Assembly: GCA_964527235.1 (NCBI GenBank)
Contig: CAZGNC010000003.1
Span: 47,809 to 111,808, forward strand
Reading direction: 5' to 3'
DNA length: 64,000 nucleotides
DNA from: an uncultured Candidatus Saccharibacteria bacterium
GTDB taxonomy: Bacteria; Patescibacteriota; Minisyncoccia; Phycocordibacterales; UBA9973
Positions 2,141 to 25,754 of the stretch are shown piece after piece. Within the stretch, counting starts at the first letter, position 1, and the number at the start of each line of letters is the position of its first letter. Under the pieces are notes generated by a model. The model saw only the letters and a list, made by a program, of their open reading frames with translations. It did not search any database and had not been told where the DNA came from. A program made the position numbers and the translations under genes.

Positions 2141-3436
2141 TTATTTCAAGCCGAACACTTTGTTGGTAATCTTGTATGCCTCCCCCGCCCCCATAGTGAC
2201 AAAAACATCCCCTTTACCTAGGTGAAGACTAGCGACAAACTGCTCTAAATCCTCGAAACTGGCAAAAGATTGGGAGTTTTGACTGTACTCCTGTACTTTT
2301 TCTGATAATTTTTCACTAGAAATACTTGGGTCCGGATCTTCCCTGGCAAAGTATATAGGTAAAAATAGTACCTGATCAGCATCGCTGAAGCTCTGACTAA
2401 ACTCATCGAAGAAGGCCCGAGTGCGACTGTATAGATGTGGTTGAAAGACCACGGTCAGCTTTTTGTCCCCCTTTGGGTAAATTCCCCTAAGAGCCCTGAG
2501 GCTCGCCCGGACTTCGGTCGGATGGTGAGCATAATCGTCGTAGATAATGAGCCCATTCGGGAGCTCGGCCCTCTTTTCAAGGCGTCTCCAAGTACCAGCG
2601 AACTCTGCCAGAGAATCCTGGGCGACTTTTTCATCTACACCAAGTACATCTGCCACCGCAAGTGCTACTGCAGCATCCATGCGGTTGTGCTCACCAGGAA
2701 CTTTGAGCTCTGGGACCTTTTGTAAAAAATTAGAATATTCAGTAATCTTGTATTCGCTTTGATCTAGGAATTTATTAAATGCGTCTTTGATATCATCTAG
2801 GTCTTTATAGCAGTCCAAGTGGTCGGCTTCGATGTTGGTAATAGCCCCGACAAACGGATGGAAGTTGAGCATGTGTCTGTTGTACTCGTCTGCTTCAACT
2901 ACAAGATATTCACTTTTACCTGCACGAAAATTACTACCGAATTTCTTCACAAACGACCCTACGATAACTGTCGGGTCAAGTCCTGCGTCCGCCAGAATTC
3001 CCGCGACCATAGCGGTCGTGGTAGTTTTACCATGAGTACCTGAAATCGCGATAACTTTGTATTCTTTCGCGACCTCACCAAGTGCTTCGAAGTAGCTAAG
3101 CACTGGTTTGCCAGTACGCCTCGCTTCTTCTAGAATCTCTGGCCCGCGATACAGCCACGCATCAGAATAGATATACAAATCTGCTTCGGGTAGAGAAGTA
3201 AACTTCTGCGAATGGTCGACGTTGCCAAGCAGGAGATCCTGAGCAGGAGTTTGCTTCTCTTTTAAAAAAACTTTGATTCCGGCACTTCTTAACAAATTTA
3301 CAGTGTCCCCCTCTTCATCATTTAACCCGAGAACTTCTACACCCCTACTCTGAAACATCTGAGCCAAAGCCGAAATACCGATACCACCTATACCTATACA
3401 GAACACTTTTTTAATTTTTGAAATTTCTAATTGCAT
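2141..3436 (-). CDS. murC: UDP-N-acetylmuramate--L-alanine ligase
   Basis: N-terminal FCIGIGGIGISALA Rossmann motif typical of MurC; P-loop GTHGKTTTTAM; Mur ligase C-terminal region. Confidence 0.9.
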   Translation of the reverse strand: MQLEISKIKKVFCIGIGGIGISALAQMFQSRGVEVLGLNDEEGDTVNLLRSAGIKVFLKEKQTPAQDLLLGNVDHSQKFTSLPEADLYIYSDAWLYRGPEILEEARRTGKPVLSYFEALGEVAKEYKVIAISGTHGKTTTTAMVAGILADAGLDPTVIVGSFVKKFGSNFRAGKSEYLVVEADEYNRHMLNFHPFVGAITNIEADHLDCYKDLDDIKDAFNKFLDQSEYKITEYSNFLQKVPELKVPGEHNRMDAAVALAVADVLGVDEKVAQDSLAEFAGTWRRLEKRAELPNGLIIYDDYAHHPTEVRASLRALRGIYPKGDKKLTVVFQPHLYSRTRAFFDEFSQSFSDADQVLFLPIYFAREDPDPSISSEKLSEKVQEYSQNSQSFASFEDLEQFVASLHLGKGDVFVTMGAGEAYKITNKVFGLK

Positions 3437-4741
3437 TTATTTCAGTTTTTTAACCAAATTCATAAACTTCTCTCCCCTGTCATATTCATTTTTAAACATA
3501 TTAAAAGATGCAAAGGCTGGGCTAAATAATATAATATCCCCTGCTTTGGCGAATTTGTACGCTCTTTTAACGGCTTCGGCTAAATCTTTAACTTTTTCTA
3601 AATCTGCTTTCACATTCACCTTATCACTTCCCGCCCCTGGAGTAAGATATATCCTCTTGGTCCTTTCTGGGAGAATCTTCAGTAATTGCTCCAATGGCAA
3701 CTTCTTGTCCATACCACCCATTATCAAAATAACTTTCTCAGAAAAAGAATTTAGCGCAGCGATTGTCGCATCCGGGGTAGTAGAATTTGTATCATTAAAT
3801 ATTCTCACGCCGTTAAACTTGCGCGCTAATTCTAGCCTACCAGGCATGGTTTTAAACCCTTCTACCGCTTTACGGACCTTATCTTCATCTATATTTAAAA
3901 GCTTGGCAACTTCGATCGCACAAGCAATATTCTCTAAGTTGTGAGCCCCCGGAACTTTGATTTTCCAGTCTACGGGAACTTTATCAGGATCAGCTACCAG
4001 AGTCTTCTGTGGACCCTTCGGAATTTTATCCGCAAGATTTTTGCCAACAACCAATGCATCTCCCTTCTTCTGAAATTTATACACATAAGACTTGTCTAAG
4101 AAATATTGATTCATATCTTCACGGTAGTAATTCATATGATCTGGCATGAAGTTAGTGAAAACTGCAATGTTGGGTGAGATCATCGCCTCGCCGAAACCCT
4201 GCAACTGCCAAGAAGATAATTCAAATACTGCAATGTCTCCTGGCTTTACTTTTTTAAGCAGTGGTAGAGCTGCTGTACCTAAAACATTTCCTCCTAAATA
4301 CACCCGCACACCTGCGCTCTTTAAGATTTTATAAATTAGCGCAGTAGTAGTGCTCTTTCCACGAGTGCCAGTAATACCGATAATTTTGACTTCAGGTGCT
4401 AACTTTGCAAAAAGCGATTCATCCATCTCAACTGGAATGCCTTGCTCGCGTGCATGCGCGATATAGGGAGAATCAAGCGCTACTCCCTGGCCCTTTAGTA
4501 TAAAATCTTTATCTTCAAAGTCTTCAAATCTATGTTCGCCTAAAACATAAGTAATATTATCCTCGTACTTAGCTAATTTCTTTACAGAGGGTAGAAGCTC
4601 TTTTCTAGTCTTAAGATCAGTGACTGTGATATGCGCACCGCATTCCGCCATAAAAGCAATATCACCCAAGCGCTTACCCAGAAGCCCGAGCCCTACGACA
4701 GTAACATGCTTATCTTTGAAATATTTCTTATAATCAACCAT
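3437..4741 (-). CDS. murD: UDP-N-acetylmuramoylalanine--D-glutamate ligase
   Basis: VTVVGLGLLGK N-terminal motif, GITGTRGKSTTTALI P-loop, Mur ligase architecture; abuts murC. Confidence 0.9.
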   Translation of the reverse strand: MVDYKKYFKDKHVTVVGLGLLGKRLGDIAFMAECGAHITVTDLKTRKELLPSVKKLAKYEDNITYVLGEHRFEDFEDKDFILKGQGVALDSPYIAHAREQGIPVEMDESLFAKLAPEVKIIGITGTRGKSTTTALIYKILKSAGVRVYLGGNVLGTAALPLLKKVKPGDIAVFELSSWQLQGFGEAMISPNIAVFTNFMPDHMNYYREDMNQYFLDKSYVYKFQKKGDALVVGKNLADKIPKGPQKTLVADPDKVPVDWKIKVPGAHNLENIACAIEVAKLLNIDEDKVRKAVEGFKTMPGRLELARKFNGVRIFNDTNSTTPDATIAALNSFSEKVILIMGGMDKKLPLEQLLKILPERTKRIYLTPGAGSDKVNVKADLEKVKDLAEAVKRAYKFAKAGDIILFSPAFASFNMFKNEYDRGEKFMNLVKKLK

Positions 4742-4763
4742 TAAAATATACTACCATAACAAA

Positions 4764-4792
4764 TTGACAAATGTGAGGGATAATAATATCCT
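4764..4792 (+). promoter_or_regulatory. sigma70-like promoter TTGACA-17-TATCCT upstream of GC-rich cassette 1
   Basis: TTGACA 4764-4769, TATCCT 4787-4792. Confidence 0.45.
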
Positions 4793-4839
4793 CTTCGTTA
4801 GATAGCAACTTGCGCTGAAACCCGAACCGGGAGGGGCAC

Positions 4840-5253
4840 ATGAAGATCACCATAGCGATAACCATCGTGTTGTCTGCCATCTTGGTAGCAATGCCCAACC
4901 CGTTTGGGTTAAGAGAAGTAAGAACGCCTGATCCACGTGAAGGACGAATCGTGAATCCTGATTCGTCGGGAGGATGGAGTGCGTACGCCAAGGGCCACGC
5001 CAAGACTCGATGCGGCGTGTACTTCTTCCGCGAGAAAGAGGGGCTGCGATTCGTATTCAGTCGCCCAGACTCGGTACGAAGAAGCAATGGTGCGAGAGAT
5101 ACTGAAAGACTCGCACTTGCAAAGAGCTTCACCGCTCAAGGAGCAGAAGAAGACACGCCTAGCGCAATCGAGCTAGGAGGATGGAAGTTCGAAATACGAA
5201 TACCAGAGGAGGACACGAAGAGTATGTCGTGTCTCAAGCAACCCCCGCCGTGA
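4840..5253 (+). CDS. GC-rich cassette 1: small protein (137 aa) with N-terminal signal/TM segment, unknown function
   Basis: SD GGGAGGGG 5 nt upstream of ATG. N-terminus MKITIAITIVLSAILVAMP is hydrophobic. GC about 55 percent versus about 37 percent flanks. Stop codon lies inside the first of two terminator hairpins. Could alternatively be a structured ncRNA. Confidence 0.4.
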   Translation: MKITIAITIVLSAILVAMPNPFGLREVRTPDPREGRIVNPDSSGGWSAYAKGHAKTRCGVYFFREKEGLRFVFSRPDSVRRSNGARDTERLALAKSFTAQGAEEDTPSAIELGGWKFEIRIPEEDTKSMSCLKQPPP

Positions 5254-5315
5254 ATATAGCCGGCGGGGGAAGATCGAAAGCAACACACCAAAAAATATTT
5301 GGTGTGCTTTTATTT
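5242..5315 (+). terminator. tandem hairpin terminators (CCCCCGCCG..CGGCGGGGG then CACACC..GGTGTG + T-run); second also serves murE on the minus strand
   Basis: 9-bp GC stem then 6-bp stem followed by CTTTTATTT. Confidence 0.6.
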
Positions 5316-6570
5316 AGAATAACTTCTGAAACTCTTCAACATCATTGAAGTGGTGTTTAACCCCCTTGATGTCTTGATAATCTTCGTGACCCTTGCCGGC
5401 ACACAGAATAATATCCCCTTTCTCTGCTAAACGCATGCTTTCTTCGATAGCTTCGCGTCTGTTAGGAATAGCCTTTATGTTCTCAGAAGAACCAGGCAGA
5501 AGATCGGACTGCATTTCCCATATTATTTTCTCGGGATCTTCGTTGCGTGGATTGTCAGATGTGAAAATAGCTATATCAGAAAGTGTAGCTCCAATACGGC
5601 CCATCTTCGAACGCTTGAGCGGGTCACGGTCTCCCCCGCAACCAAAAACCGAAATTAATTTCTTACCCTCAGGTTTGATTTCGCGCGCGACCATTAGCAC
5701 TTTCTCTAAAGCGTCTGGAGTATGGGCATAATCAACGATAACCAGGACGCCCTTGGGTGAAGTGAAGTGCTCAAATCTGCCACGAGGAGGCTCGATAGTT
5801 TCTAGTATTTTATTCACTTTTGCCATATCAAAACCAAGTAAATTGCTAACAGACCAGACAGTAAGCAGGTTGTAGGCATTGAACTTCCCCAGAAGCTTTG
5901 ACTTTATATTAGTCTTTTCAAATCGCAGTTCTAAACCTGAAAAATCAGCTTTTACTAACTCTCCTCTGAAAGAATTATACAAAGTCGCGGTGCCGTCAAC
6001 GTTCGAAAATTCATAAAGATATTTTCTGGCTTGAATGCCTTCTAACATTTTCTTCCCGTACTCATCATCAGCATTAGAAAGGGCGAAGGCGCTCTCAGGA
6101 AGCATCTGGAAGAACTTCTTCTTGGCTTCAAAATATTTCTCAAATGTCTGATGATAGTCTAAGTGATCATGAGTAAGGTTGGTGAAAATCCCCCCAGCAA
6201 ACTTTATTCCTGCAACTCTATTCTGATCTACAGCGTGAGAAGAGACTTCCATAAATACATATTCGCAACCTTTTTCTACCATTTCGTCTAGAAGTTTAGT
6301 TAAAGTCACCGAATCCGGTGTGGTGTGAGTCACACCCCTAACTTCCCCAGCTATTATATTTTCTACGGTCCCAATAAGCCCTGCTTTGTATCCCAAGGCA
6401 GTTGTGATTCGATACAGAAGTGTCGCGGTAGTGGTCTTACCATTCGTACCTGTAACACCAACAACTTTCAACTTTCTAGAAGGATTGCCGAAATAGTGCC
6501 TTGCCGAAAAAGACTTTACCCTCCACCAAATCTTCTTTAGATTTTTGATAATTGGTTTCATTTTATTCAC
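5314..6570 (-). CDS. murE: UDP-N-acetylmuramoyl-L-alanyl-D-glutamate--2,6-diaminopimelate (or L-Lys) ligase
   Basis: VVGVTGTNGKTTTA P-loop, MEVSSHA motif, DYAHTPDALEKVL and GDRD motifs. The listed start is GTG; an internal ATG at about 6561 is equally plausible. Confidence 0.85.
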   Translation of the reverse strand: MNKMKPIIKNLKKIWWRVKSFSARHYFGNPSRKLKVVGVTGTNGKTTTATLLYRITTALGYKAGLIGTVENIIAGEVRGVTHTTPDSVTLTKLLDEMVEKGCEYVFMEVSSHAVDQNRVAGIKFAGGIFTNLTHDHLDYHQTFEKYFEAKKKFFQMLPESAFALSNADDEYGKKMLEGIQARKYLYEFSNVDGTATLYNSFRGELVKADFSGLELRFEKTNIKSKLLGKFNAYNLLTVWSVSNLLGFDMAKVNKILETIEPPRGRFEHFTSPKGVLVIVDYAHTPDALEKVLMVAREIKPEGKKLISVFGCGGDRDPLKRSKMGRIGATLSDIAIFTSDNPRNEDPEKIIWEMQSDLLPGSSENIKAIPNRREAIEESMRLAEKGDIILCAGKGHEDYQDIKGVKHHFNDVEEFQKLF

Positions 6571-8032: not shown

Positions 8033-10573
8033 TTAATTTATTAAAGACTTCCTGTGCTGTGGGGCGTTGATCATTCCGCATTTCTTCCATTTATAGACTT
8101 CCCCTGTTGCAGGATTTATAGCACCACATGGGCAAGGATCATTGCGACCGACTGTCTCACCAGAATGTGCTGGGGTATTAACTGTATTTTCGATATTTGA
8201 TGACTCACTTTGATTGGTAACTAGAGTTTGCTTGGGAAGGTTTGTGGCTTCTTGCGCCTGACTACGAGTAGCTTCTTCAACATTGAGTGTCTTGATAAGA
8301 GAGAAAACTTGGTCTTTAAAGGTTTCTTCCATCTCTTTGAACATAGCTAACCCATCTTTCTTGTATTCAACTATCGGCTCACGCTGACCATACGCACGAA
8401 GATTTACAGAACTACGCAAGTAATCCATAGCTTCTAGGTGTTCCATCCATAGATTGTCTGTAGTATACAGAGCGATTCTGCGTACTGTTTCTAAGAAAGC
8501 AGATTCACCTAATTTCTCCCTCTTTTCTTTGATTATTTGTTCTGCCCCCTCTACTCCCAGAGAAACTTTATCAAGAATTTCTTCGATACCTGCTTTATCA
8601 GCATGGAGCATTTTCTGACGACGTTCATATATAATCTTACGCTGATGATTCATCACATCGTCATACTCTAGAGTATGCTTACGTGCATCGAAATGAAATC
8701 CTTCGATCTTAGACTGTGCACCTTCGAGAGTTTTATTTACGAAACGATTCTCGATAGGCATATCTTCAGGAATACCAAATCTACCCATCATGCTCTTCAA
8801 CCTATCAGAGCCGAATACTCGCATAAGATCATCCTCGAGAGACACATAAAACTGAGTTTCTCCAGGGTCTCCCTGACGGCCTGCGCGACCGCGAAGCTGG
8901 TTGTCGATACGACGAGCTTCGTGTCTTTCAGTACCTATAACATATAGACCACCAGCATTTTTTACAAATTCATACTCTTCTTTAGTGTGAGGATTACCTC
9001 CGAGCTTTATGTCGATTCCGCGACCAGCCATGTTGGTAGCGATGGTTACTGCCCCACGCTTACCAGCTTGGGCAATAATCTCACCTTCCTTTTCATGATT
9101 TTTAGCGTTAAGTATTGTATGTTGCACTCCTTCTTGGCGCAGATATACCGAAAGAAGTTCATTCTTCTCAATAGAAATAGTACCCACAAGCACAGGCTGG
9201 CCTTTGAGGTTGAGCTCTTTTATCTTTTTAGCAATAGCCTGAAATTTACCCTTCTCAGTTTGAAAAATTAAATCTGAATGATCAATACGCACTACTGGAG
9301 TATTGGTTGGAACTACGATGACATCTAGACCATAAACTTTCAAAAATTCTTCTGCAGAAGTATCAGCAGTACCAGTCATACCAGAAAGCTTCTTGTAGAA
9401 TCTAAAGTAGTTCTGGAAGGTTATCGAACCCGAAGAACGAGTCTCTTTCTCGATTTTTACTCCTTCTTTCGCCTCTATAGCTTGATGTATACCCTCACTC
9501 CAGCGTCTTCCTGGTTGGAGACGTCCAGTAAAAGGATCAACGATGACGACTTCACCGTCTTTGACCACATAATCCTTATCACGCTCAAATATCGCCTGTG
9601 CTTTCACCGCAGTTTCTAAATGATGCACATATTTTATGCCTTTTTCTGTATATATATTATCTACACCCAACAATTGCTCAGCTTTACTGATACCGTCATC
9701 TGTAAGAGTAATAGCGCGAAGCTTCTCATCTACAGTATAGTCTGTATCTTTCTTTAATTGTTTAGCAATTTGGTAAAACCTAACATAAAAATCTTCAGAA
9801 TCTCCTGAAGCTGATGAAATAATCAGCGGAGTACGCGCCTCATCTATAAGAATAGAGTCGACTTCGTCCACAATAGCGTAATGGTGCTCTCGCTGAACCA
9901 GGCCTTCTGGCATCGTTGCCAAATTATCGCGTAGGTAATCAAAGCCAAATTCATGGTTCGTTCCATATGTAATATCTGCATGATATGCTTCTTTTCTTGT
10001 GCAAGGCTTCAGGAAATCATATATAACCTTGAATTCTCCGACTTCATCACGCTCTTTATCTTCCTCGACGTGTTTAGGATCATATAGATAAGAAACATTC
10101 TGAGAATTGATAACTCCAACCGAAAGCCCAAGAGAATTATAAATCTGCCCCATCAACACTGCACCCAGGCGCGCTAAATAATCATTGACTGTAATCAAAT
10201 GCGCACCTTTACCTGATATTGCATTGAGATAAAGAGGAAGAGTCGCAACTAAAGTCTTACCCTCTCCTGTTTTCATTTCGGCAATTTTACCTTTATGTAG
10301 TGCTAAACCTCCTATAAGTTGCACATCGTAGTGACGCTCACCTAGATTCCTCTTAGCTACCTCACGCACTACGGCAAAAGCCTCAGGCAAGATGTCGTCC
10401 AGACTCTCCCCCTTAGCCAATCTATCCTTAAATTCTTGGGTCTTTTTCGGGAAATCCTCGTCTTTTAGCTTAGAAATATCTGCCTCTAGGGCGTTTATTT
10501 TAGCAACGGTCTTTTTAGCCTCATTTACAAATGAAGTGCTTGTATCACCAAATATCTTACTAAAAATACTCAT
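8033..10573 (-). CDS. secA: preprotein translocase ATPase SecA
   Basis: Conserved DEAD-like motor motifs along 846 aa. C-terminal Cys-rich zinc-binding tail DPCPCG...KWKKCG. Confidence 0.95.
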   Translation of the reverse strand: MSIFSKIFGDTSTSFVNEAKKTVAKINALEADISKLKDEDFPKKTQEFKDRLAKGESLDDILPEAFAVVREVAKRNLGERHYDVQLIGGLALHKGKIAEMKTGEGKTLVATLPLYLNAISGKGAHLITVNDYLARLGAVLMGQIYNSLGLSVGVINSQNVSYLYDPKHVEEDKERDEVGEFKVIYDFLKPCTRKEAYHADITYGTNHEFGFDYLRDNLATMPEGLVQREHHYAIVDEVDSILIDEARTPLIISSASGDSEDFYVRFYQIAKQLKKDTDYTVDEKLRAITLTDDGISKAEQLLGVDNIYTEKGIKYVHHLETAVKAQAIFERDKDYVVKDGEVVIVDPFTGRLQPGRRWSEGIHQAIEAKEGVKIEKETRSSGSITFQNYFRFYKKLSGMTGTADTSAEEFLKVYGLDVIVVPTNTPVVRIDHSDLIFQTEKGKFQAIAKKIKELNLKGQPVLVGTISIEKNELLSVYLRQEGVQHTILNAKNHEKEGEIIAQAGKRGAVTIATNMAGRGIDIKLGGNPHTKEEYEFVKNAGGLYVIGTERHEARRIDNQLRGRAGRQGDPGETQFYVSLEDDLMRVFGSDRLKSMMGRFGIPEDMPIENRFVNKTLEGAQSKIEGFHFDARKHTLEYDDVMNHQRKIIYERRQKMLHADKAGIEEILDKVSLGVEGAEQIIKEKREKLGESAFLETVRRIALYTTDNLWMEHLEAMDYLRSSVNLRAYGQREPIVEYKKDGLAMFKEMEETFKDQVFSLIKTLNVEEATRSQAQEATNLPKQTLVTNQSESSNIENTVNTPAHSGETVGRNDPCPCGAINPATGEVYKWKKCGMINAPQHRKSLIN

Positions 10574-10815: not shown

Positions 10816-11095
10816 AGGAACAACTTAATTATCTCGCATATTAAAATTTATTACAATACTTTTTTCACAAAACTGTGGATAACTTTTTTATTTTCAAAAA
10901 TAAAAATATAAAATATTTTTTAAAAAAATTAATTATTTACTTAAAATAAAAAATTCTCGACCTTTCGATCAAGAATTCTTTATTATTATTTTCATTTGAG
11001 GCGAGTGATGGCGAAACTCCAACATATGTGCCTATGTGAGTGCGACCACTCGCCACAGATGAAAACAATATAACCATTATATCATACTATTCTCG

Positions 11096-11166
11096 TGGAC
11101 CCACGGGGAATCGGACCCCGGCCTCGTCCATGCCATGGACGCGTAATACCATTTTACTATGGGCCC
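11096..11166 (-). tRNA. tRNA-Ala (anticodon GGC)
   Basis: Manual fold: acceptor GGGCCCA/TGGGTCC with the G3:U70 alanine identity pair, U8 A9, D-loop with GG, anticodon loop AU-GGC-AU, discriminator A. No encoded CCA. The T-loop is an atypical UCCGAUU. Confidence 0.65.
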
Positions 11167-12685: not shown

Positions 12686-14250
<1,565 letters not shown>

Positions 14251-14263
14251 ATTAAAAGTATTA

Positions 14264-24917: not shown

Positions 24918-25005
24918 AGAAATGATTATACTATGTATCTAACTAAAACAGAAAACCGCCCCAAAATGCAATATTGGACAGAAAACCATAACCCCTGACC
25001 CCCTA

Positions 25006-25033
25006 TTGACATTATTTGTGAATTGTGTAGAAT
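25006..25033 (+). promoter_or_regulatory. sigma70 promoter TTGACA-16-TAGAAT for cassette 2
   Basis: TTGACA 25006-25011, TAGAAT 25028-25033. Confidence 0.5.
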
Positions 25034-25106
25034 ACCAAAACTGCTCAAGGGGCCGGACGAGCGTCCGGAAGCCCGAAAGGCACAGCTCTTTCAGGAGGAT
25101 ACCAAC

Positions 25107-25304
25107 GTGAGCCAGCGCACCGAACCGCACAACCCGGCACAGGACCCGAACGTTTCCTCGCTTATCGCTCCGACCACTCCGACGACCTCCAGCGTGACCG
25201 GCGACAACTCGAGCGGCGACAACAACGGCGGCGGGCGCGACGACGCCGAGCGCGCGGCCGACCAGAGCGATCCGGCGACGAGCCCGGACAACGTCGGCGG
25301 CTGA
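25107..25304 (+). CDS. GC-rich cassette 2: 65-aa acidic low-complexity peptide ending VGG (GTG start)
   Basis: SD AGGAGG 25093-25098, 8 nt before GTG. 5' UTR hairpin CCGGACG/CGTCCGG. Product SQRTEPHNPAQDP...PTTPTTSSVTGDNSSGDNNGGG...PDNVGG. Confidence 0.35.
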   Translation: MSQRTEPHNPAQDPNVSSLIAPTTPTTSSVTGDNSSGDNNGGGRDDAERAADQSDPATSPDNVGG

Positions 25305-25360
25305 CCTCTCCCGAGGCGCCGAAGCAACATCGGGACGGAATACAACCCGTCCCACAAGAA

Positions 25361-25398
25361 GGGGCATCGCAAACATCGCGGTGCCCCTTTCCACGTTT
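25361..25398 (+). terminator. terminator GGGGCATCGC-aaacat-GCGGTGCCCC + TTTCCACGTTT (copy 1)
   Basis: 10-bp stem (one G.U) plus T-rich tail; nearly identical to the copy at 25699-25736. Confidence 0.7.
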
Positions 25399-25428
25399 AG
25401 ACCCAATCCTATTAACACAACTCTACCA

Positions 25429-25456
25429 TTGACATTCTGTCTTGGTAGTGTAGAAT
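25429..25456 (+). promoter_or_regulatory. sigma70 promoter TTGACA-16-TAGAAT for cassette 3
   Basis: TTGACA 25429-25434, TAGAAT 25451-25456; paralogous to the cassette-2 promoter. Confidence 0.5.
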
Positions 25457-25528
25457 ATACATTGAAAGTCCTGATTCCGACATCGATGATCGGAAGTCCG
25501 GGGCACCGTACAACCAAGGAGGCTCCTG

Positions 25529-25681
25529 ATGGCCTACATCCGCAGCACCGACCCAAGGCCCGTCGTTGATAAAGACGACAACAAGAAGGCCGGCCTCGGA
25601 GACAGAGACATCGTCACAGTCGACACCGCGCCAGCACACGACCCGGCAGCTAACGTCAACCTGGCGGCTGGCGGGTACTGA
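25529..25681 (+). CDS. GC-rich cassette 3: 50-aa acidic peptide MAYIRSTDPRPVVDKDDNKKAGLGDRDIVTVDTAPAHDPAANVNLAAGGY
   Basis: SD AAGGAGG 6 nt before ATG 25529; not in the ORF track (under 60 aa); diverged duplicate of cassette 2. Confidence 0.35.
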   Translation: MAYIRSTDPRPVVDKDDNKKAGLGDRDIVTVDTAPAHDPAANVNLAAGGY

Positions 25682-25698
25682 AGTTCGCATCCCACAGG

Positions 25699-25736
25699 GG
25701 GGCACCGCAACATCGCGGTGCCCCTTTCCACGTTTT
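25699..25736 (+). terminator. terminator GGGGCACCGC-aacatc-GCGGTGCCCC + TTTCCACGTTTT (copy 2)
   Basis: Perfect 10-bp stem with T tail. Confidence 0.75.
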
Positions 25737-25754
25737 ATACCAACTTTTTAAATT

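Follow-up and report, generated by a model that had tools for sequence, protein, structure and literature searches.

A GC-rich island between murD and murE in a Patescibacteria contig probably carries a clade-restricted gene for a small exported protein

After analyzing the sequence and comparative data, we consider it probable that the GC-rich island between murD and murE is a self-contained antisense unit, that is, a real and ordinary small protein gene with its own promoter and terminator, native to and restricted to one clade, the product of which would be exported. The window, by which we mean the whole 64,000-nt stretch of DNA analyzed here, had been read before from its letters only, and that sequence-only reading had proposed for the island a small secreted-protein gene or a structured RNA, and had regarded the unit as a possible cassette. 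The comparison favors the secreted-protein gene: the frame, length and position of the open reading frame (ORF) are conserved in two further lineages, the substitutions are those of a coding sequence, and an N-terminal hydrophobic segment is present in all three proteins. The structured RNA, for which tmRNA, RNase P RNA and SRP RNA had been considered, did not hold, with no Rfam match at E<=1 and a folding that is not common to the homologues. The cassette survived only in part: the unit is absent from 67 related genomes, but it occupies the same junction in the three closest lineages and has no repeats, second copy or mobility gene.

Results

A plus-strand unit at the murE-murD junction

The gap between murE and murD in the window is 572 nt long and GC-richer than its surroundings. 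In 200-nt windows, the GC content at 4800-5100 is 0.535-0.555, compared with a mean of 0.411 (sd 0.06) for the whole window, and the GC-rich plus-strand island that had been described between murD and murE was therefore confirmed; merged, it spans 4789-5292 at a GC content of 0.532. The island is real, though not extreme, because it exceeds the mean by about 2 sd and approximately 10 other stretches of the 64 kb also reach a GC content of 0.50-0.57. The sequence-only reading had listed a TTGACA-17-TATCCT promoter, a Shine-Dalgarno site, a 137-aa ORF, a stop codon inside a first hairpin and a second hairpin, and all of them were recovered exactly where they had been placed. ORFs are also open on both strands, as that reading had remarked (137 aa on the plus strand, and 132 aa at 4734-5132 on the minus strand). 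The features of the junction are as follows.

2141-3436, minus strand: murC, a Mur ligase gene by Pfam; the order of the row is murE-murD-murC
3437-4741, minus strand: murD, a 434-aa ORF with the Pfam domains MurD-like_N, Mur_ligase_M and Mur_ligase_C, the downstream member of the interrupted row
4742-4763, minus strand: block upstream of murD, TGG-TAGTAT-ATTTTA-ATG, with TAGTAT running from 4753 to 4748
4764-4792, plus strand: putative small-gene promoter, TTGACA (4764-4769), 17 nt and TATCCT (4787-4792), matching 10 of 12 consensus positions in a consensus scan
4829-4836, plus strand: Shine-Dalgarno site GGGAGGGG, 3 nt before the ATG at 4840
4840-5253, plus strand: coding sequence of the 137-aa orphan protein, starting MKITIAITIVLSAILVA, with the homologues P0002 and P0005
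4840-4893, plus strand: predicted N-terminal signal or anchor segment, residues 1-18, from hydropathy
5242-5250 and 5261-5269, plus strand: hairpin 1, CCCCCGCCG / CGGCGGGGG, a perfect 9-bp inverted repeat
5284-5292 and 5298-5306, plus strand: hairpin 2, CACACCAAA / TTTGGTGTG followed by CTTTTATTT, the element reaching 5315; terminator-like by scan (inverted repeat I8)
5314-6570, minus strand: murE, a 418-aa ORF with the Pfam domains Mur_ligase_M and Mur_ligase_C, convergent with the small gene

Some observations concern the surrounding genes. Only the middle and C-terminal Mur ligase domains were matched by Pfam in the 418-aa murE product; the N-terminal Mur_ligase domain (PF01225) had no match there and is present in murC of related contigs. 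Elsewhere in the window, a 16S rRNA gene (12692-14256, minus strand), tRNA-Ala (11095-11166) and secA (8033-10573) follow one another in this order, with secA directly after the tRNA. A 23S rRNA gene was not found anywhere in the 64 kb, and the rRNA genes appear to be unlinked.

Homologues and coding character of the small ORF

The exact 137-aa protein also occurs on L001 and L002, which are contigs of the same organism. A homology search, proposed as a check in the sequence-only reading, returned two homologues of 129 and 136 aa, namely P0002 on contig L070 (129 aa, E 1.6e-23) and P0005 on contig L071 (136 aa, E 2.3e-05 in the profile search and 4e-09 by BLASTP against the window protein). 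In an exhaustive profile search of 1.84 billion representative proteins, P0005 was the sole further true relative, and two scans of JGI metagenomes and one of IMG/VR yielded no further relatives. P0003 and P0004 (E 5e-14 and 4e-06) were rejected as giant repeat proteins, the BLASTP match of which is a 14-residue NPDxSGxW motif repeated 9 times, so that their scores are inflated by repeats. The family has three members only, which gives tests of selection and structure low power.

The frame is kept in all three lineages (ORFs of 137, 129 and 136 aa), and the substitutions are biased toward third codon positions and synonymous sites, as is characteristic of a protein-coding gene. Between the window and L070, the differences at codon positions 1, 2 and 3 number 48, 42 and 78, and pN is 0.34 compared with a saturated pS of 0.77. 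With the closest homologue, 67 of 127 amino acids are identical in frame, compared with 34 of 119 and 33 of 119 in the shifted frames, and different codons are used at 37 of the 67 identical residues. The GC excess of the coding sequence has two sources, amino acid composition and a raised GC3. In the protein, R, P, A and G are abundant whereas K and N are scarce, and GC2 is 0.45-0.51 compared with 0.33-0.375 in the neighboring genes; GC3 is 0.54 in the window (neighbors, 0.37-0.44), 0.50 in L070 (0.40-0.43) and 0.65 in L071 (0.47-0.55), and is thus still raised in all three lineages despite the saturation of synonymous sites.

Distribution and rate of evolution

The genes of P0002 and P0005 both lie, on metagenomic contigs, antisense between murE and murD. 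When MurD was searched against 185,579 GTDB species representatives, 67 loci were retrieved, and the best MurD matches, none above 70% identity, came from Patescibacteria that carry the labels Nomurabacteria or Paceibacteria. The small gene was absent from all 67 of these murD loci (blastn, tblastn and a three-sequence HMM on six-frame ORFs), in most of which murE and murD abut or overlap. In the comparison of murE-murD synteny that had been suggested earlier, the slot is kept in the three carriers and the gene is missing from the 67 GTDB loci. Among the carriers, MurD is 79-90% identical, and they are closer to each other than to their GTDB relatives.

Given this mutual closeness of the carriers, the gene would, most simply, have been gained once in their common ancestor and then inherited at the murE-murD site. 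Judged from these comparisons, the gene is vertically inherited and belongs natively to one narrow group of Nomurabacteria/Paceibacteria-like Patescibacteria; by the measure that the sequence-only reading itself had set for telling a native gene from a cassette, the unit behaves as a native gene restricted to one clade. In local alignments with its two homologues, the small protein shows 57% and 25% identity, and in the same comparisons the values are 90 and 79% for MurD, 80 and 71% for MurE and 85 and 81% for SecA. The small protein thus evolves several-fold faster than its neighbors, while remaining under purifying selection.

Promoters and hairpins

The signals around the ORF are shared among the lineages. 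The -35 box AATTGACAAA is invariant in the window, L070 and L071, and the 17-nt spacer is identical in length; the -10 box varies as TATCCT, TATTCT or TATCGT, following the pattern TAT(C/T)(C/G)T. An equivalent Shine-Dalgarno site lies in the same place in L070 (GGGAGAGA) and L071 (GGAGG). In the three lineages, no part of the island is better conserved than the 22-nt block that separates the -35 box from the murD start codon. At the equivalent spot, relatives with a murE-murD gap carry TGTGnTAATAT-N6-ATG before murD, and TGnTA(A/G)TAT was seen exactly 6 nt before the murD ATG in the window, at 4739-4756 of the minus strand, and in eight related loci (L003, L005, L013, L015, L023, L029, L030 and L048). 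We infer that this block is probably the own extended -10 promoter of murD, with a transcript starting at or near the ATG; the pattern suggests an own murD promoter and a leaderless mRNA in the window and in those relatives. The putative promoters of the small gene and of murD would then stand back to back.

At the other end, hairpin 1 occurs once in the window (0 expected). The ORFs of the window and L070 extend across its 5′ arm, from which they gain a C-terminal Pro-Pro-Pro (...KQPPP), and in the window the TGA stop codon (5251-5253) forms the first three bases of the hairpin loop. The stem CCCCGCCG/CGGCGGGG is common to all three copies and invariant in L070 and L071. The unit is closed by the hairpin CCCCGCCG-loop-CCGGCGGGG in all three lineages, the stem sequence being almost perfectly conserved across them, more strongly than the coding sequence. 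In L070 and L071, this hairpin is the sole structure between the convergent stop codons and is followed by a T-run, TTTGTATTTT and GCTGTTTTTTT, respectively; the window copy has no T-run after it. The L071 ORF stops just before the stem, and those of the window and L070 stop inside the loop. Hairpin 2, which is absent from L070 and L071, is an addition in the window copy and has the form of an intrinsic terminator, a GC-rich stem-loop followed by a T-run. It is likely to be the working terminator in the window genome; its tail extends into the murE stop codon (5314-5316), so that it is probably used by the two convergent genes alike.

The predicted protein

The N-termini of the three proteins read MK-ITIAITIVLSAILVA (window), MDRH-IGWAALAILLLVAI (L070) and MRR-LFQVLVCFLACTL (L071). 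Each has a hydrophobic stretch of 15-17 residues preceded by one to two basic residues. The Kyte-Doolittle 15-residue maxima of 2.78, 2.48 and 1.87 fall within residues 3-19, after K, R or RR, the window maximum of 2.78 being at residues 3-17, and no second hydrophobic segment was found by Kyte-Doolittle in the three proteins. All three thus combine the basic n-region and hydrophobic h-region of a Sec signal peptide or N-terminal anchor. A putative signal-peptidase I cleavage region, L-V-A\|M-P in the window and L-V-A\|I-P in L070, has the small residue Ala at -1 but Leu, instead of a small residue, at -3; L071 differs. No lipobox of the form L-[AS]-[GA]-C was found, the window and L070 proteins having no Cys before residue 58 or 59; F-L-A-C occurs in the L071 protein only and is atypical as a lipobox.

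Cys58 and Cys131 are invariant in the three proteins, and these two invariant cysteines suggest a disulfide between them in an extracytoplasmic domain. The conserved motifs are W..Y...H...RCG.YF, (L/I)RFV(F/W)...D..R(R/K) and P(S/T)(A/V)(I/V)..G...(F/Y).I.(I/V). The 137-aa protein matched no family of Pfam-A, NCBIfam, PHROGs or PADLOC at E<=1, and a profile search of the PDB gave only noise (E 0.14). AlphaFold2 gave no usable model (pLDDT 41.7 and 38.4 with alignments of two and three sequences), and a Foldseek search of the PDB with the better of these two low-confidence models returned nothing at E<=0.001, with TM-scores of 0.26 or less. The order of predicted secondary structure and the mur context had prompted the idea of a SPOR-like (beta-alpha-beta-beta-alpha-beta) peptidoglycan-binding fold, which is no more than a lead, as Pfam gave no support at E<=1 and the model was unreliable. 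A literature search on small exported proteins of Patescibacteria gave nothing specific.

Alternative readings of the island

The folding of the window copy would recommend a structured noncoding RNA gene, a novel or divergent tmRNA, RNase P RNA or SRP RNA of which the ORFs are by-products of GC content. The minimum free energy of 4795-5315 has z scores of -6.36 (plus strand) and -6.33 (minus strand), and the z score of the coding sequence alone is -3.5. Coding does not explain this unusually good folding of the window copy. The island also combines open frames on both strands with a GC content above the genome mean. Inverted repeats also lie inside the coding region (4943-4967, 5044-5057/5193-5206 and 5022-5031/5143-5152). 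However, the homologous regions fold no better than shuffles in L070 (z -0.96) and only slightly better in L071 (z -2.25), and in RNAalifold, with three sequences and hence low power, covariation contributes only -0.86 kcal/mol, many pairs are broken and the terminator stem alone is kept. The Rfam/Infernal scan that had been proposed earlier matched no RNA family to the island: in 4000-6000 there was no relevant match at E<=1 (the only hit, snoR30, reaches 19.6 bits where the gathering score is 60, and is noise), and over the whole window only the 16S rRNA and two tRNAs reached the gathering score. ARAGORN found no tmRNA in the window, where RNase P RNA and SRP RNA were likewise not found, and the substitutions show codon periodicity. 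From these comparisons, a structured-RNA reading of the island is not supported, and we rate it as very improbable. The same periodicity bears on the converse assignment, in which the real gene would be the 132-aa ORF on the minus strand, co-directional with the mur genes. This ORF exists, and its codon-aligned frame is long in the three lineages (131, 153 and 111 stop-free codons). However, where TTA, CTA and TCA codons are avoided in a GC-rich coding sequence, a long frame on the opposite strand is to be expected. Moreover, codon position 1 of the antisense frame would vary most (78 differences compared with 42 and 48), the opposite of what coding produces, and the ORF has no Pfam match, overlaps the murD start with its own start, and possesses neither a Shine-Dalgarno site nor a promoter of its own. 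We therefore give this assignment hardly any credence.

A different question is whether the island belongs where it stands. A recently and horizontally acquired mobile cassette that landed by chance between murE and murD would account for the GC content (0.53 compared with 0.41 in the window; GC3 0.54 compared with 0.37-0.44 in neighboring genes), for the antisense orientation relative to the operon and for the lack of the unit in the 67 related genomes, most of which have murE and murD abutting or overlapping. It sits poorly with the same junction being occupied in three lineages that differ by 10-21% in MurD and are saturated at synonymous sites, so that any acquisition would be ancient and single. 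Additionally, flanking direct or inverted repeats amount to short, chance-level matches, there is no second copy in the window and no adjoining integrase or transposase, and viral contigs and phage families hold no relative. The unit thus shows none of the repeats, duplication, copies or recombinase of a mobile element, and its neighbors are mur ligases only; we judge such an origin improbable. At the other extreme, the stretch might have no product and act as a regulatory spacer at the operon break, consisting of a murE terminator and a murD promoter, with a fortuitous ORF. Relatives with a gap do have noncoding elements there and the conserved -10-like box before murD, and the hairpins could terminate murE transcription. 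Nevertheless, a frame of 129-137 codons, a Shine-Dalgarno site, a consensus promoter facing outward and a synonymous bias, all kept in three lineages, are not what a spacer would show, and the gaps of the relatives, at 42-353 nt (1377 nt in L010), are not GC-rich. This makes a spacer without a product quite improbable. An extended version of the gene reading is also conceivable, in which a clade-specific module was born or captured at the murE\|murD break and both encodes a fast-evolving surface protein and insulates murE from murD by convergent transcription and the unusually conserved, partly translated GC hairpin. We hold this to be unlikely; if it were true, the RNA would be under selection in addition to the protein, and the window-specific mRNA folding and the persistent GC3 would be signs of it. 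The shift of the stop codon, from before the stem in L071 to inside the loop in the window and L070, would fit such a module, as it suggests an extension of the coding region into the terminator.

Other elements in the related loci and in the window

Many of the Nomurabacteria/Paceibacteria relatives carry a conserved structured element of approximately 75-115 nt, in either orientation, within the gap that separates murE from murD or immediately downstream of murC. An AT-rich outer stem encloses the series AAAGCAAUCUAUCU-[hairpin]-AGCGAACUGCUCG-[variable hairpin]-CCUGCGCAAGGCUUU, and compensatory changes affect 13 of 26 predicted pairs. On the plus strand, it was located in L005 (3823-3982), L013 (3866-3984), L029 (3867-3989), L048 (3867-3986), L023 (3716-3837), L007 (7544-7663) and L022 (1-108), and on the minus strand in L015 (3823-3980), L023 (3823-3981), L030 (3805-3924) and L003 (6380-6498). 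It matched no Rfam family, whether the gathering score or E<=10 was applied, and could be a small RNA not yet described, a MITE-like element, or else an elaborate bidirectional terminator or insulator. A covariance model of it (R1) gave 14 matches in related loci and none in the window. The idea that the island is a diverged copy of this element was dropped, since R1 had no match in 4700-5400 and its best score in the window was E 0.27.

In L010 (2624-4000), the murE-murD gap of 1377 nt is AT-rich (GC 0.30) and holds two unrelated ORFs of 199 aa (plus strand) and 234 aa (minus strand), a further sign that this junction tolerates insertions. The GC content of the window is highest (up to 0.68) at 24990-25740 on the plus strand, a stretch that comprises two tandem units with near-consensus TTGACA-N16-TAGAAT promoters at 25006 and 25429. 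Their ORFs, from a GTG near 25107 to 25304 and from an ATG at 25530 to about 25682, are short, GC-rich and of low-complexity or disordered appearance, and their terminators, GGGGCA(T/C)CGCAA(A)CATCGCGGTGCCCCTTTCC, at about 25361 and 25699, are almost identical. These units are of the same style as the murE-murD island and of unrelated sequence, and no Rfam match was obtained in 24990-25740 except a weak ftsZ-DE on the terminator.

Discussion

We propose that the island forms a self-contained plus-strand transcription unit, antisense at the murE/murD break, in which a sigma-70-type promoter and a Shine-Dalgarno site would drive a 137-codon gene that ends in two hairpins shared with the convergent murE end. 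The product would be a small protein in which positive charges at the N-terminus precede a hydrophobic segment of 15-17 residues, and which the Sec pathway most likely inserts into, or passes through, the membrane. A domain of approximately 115 residues would be left outside the cytoplasm, probably braced by a disulfide between Cys58 and Cys131. The coding and export parts of this proposal are well supported by the sequence comparison; the disulfide and the site of action are what the cysteines and the export signal would imply. For the product, a role at the cell envelope or cell surface seems the most likely one, a tentative assignment, and the protein could be a wall accessory or host-contact protein of an episymbiont. 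A step in peptidoglycan precursor synthesis is unlikely.

The unit adds a small, previously unclassified family of predicted exported proteins, with three members and a fixed slot next to murD, and fast-evolving exported proteins are candidates for envelope or host-contact roles in episymbiotic bacteria. Strong folding, a GC island and ORFs on two strands can together mimic an RNA gene, which calls for caution when AT-rich Patescibacteria genomes are scanned.

The likeness to RNA genes is considerable, as those of RNase P RNA, tmRNA and SRP RNA also show a GC excess of approximately 0.5 kb, a promoter and a terminator, and the window copy folds strongly. In contrast to them, the island has no covariance-model match, its fold is not conserved, and it displays codon periodicity. 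Its 3′ end resembles convergent or bidirectional intrinsic terminators, with GC hairpins within the 60 nt between convergent stop codons, a T-run of hairpin 2 that overlaps the murE stop codon and an A-rich run before the hairpin; it differs from them in that hairpin 1 is partly translated (the Pro-Pro-Pro arm, with the stop codon in the loop).

Among proteins, FtsL and FtsB, the bitopic proteins of the dcw cluster, are similar in size, have one N-terminal hydrophobic helix and adjoin mur genes. However, the window gene, which has a promoter and a terminator of its own, lies on the opposite strand, and its product has no Pfam or NCBIfam match, which would include FtsL and FtsB. Low-confidence models of the product give a mixed alpha/beta domain without a long coiled coil, and its absence from most relatives argues against a core division protein. 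The libraries searched (Pfam, NCBIfam, PHROGs, PADLOC and PDB) hold no named or described member of the family, and the closest likeness in kind is to the orphan small Sec-exported proteins of reduced-genome bacteria. Like these, the predicted protein is short, with a basic and then hydrophobic N-terminus and a conserved cysteine pair, evolves fast, has a narrow range and stands outside the database families. Unlike them, the window gene keeps a fixed antisense slot in the row of mur ligase genes, with its putative promoter back to back with that of murD.
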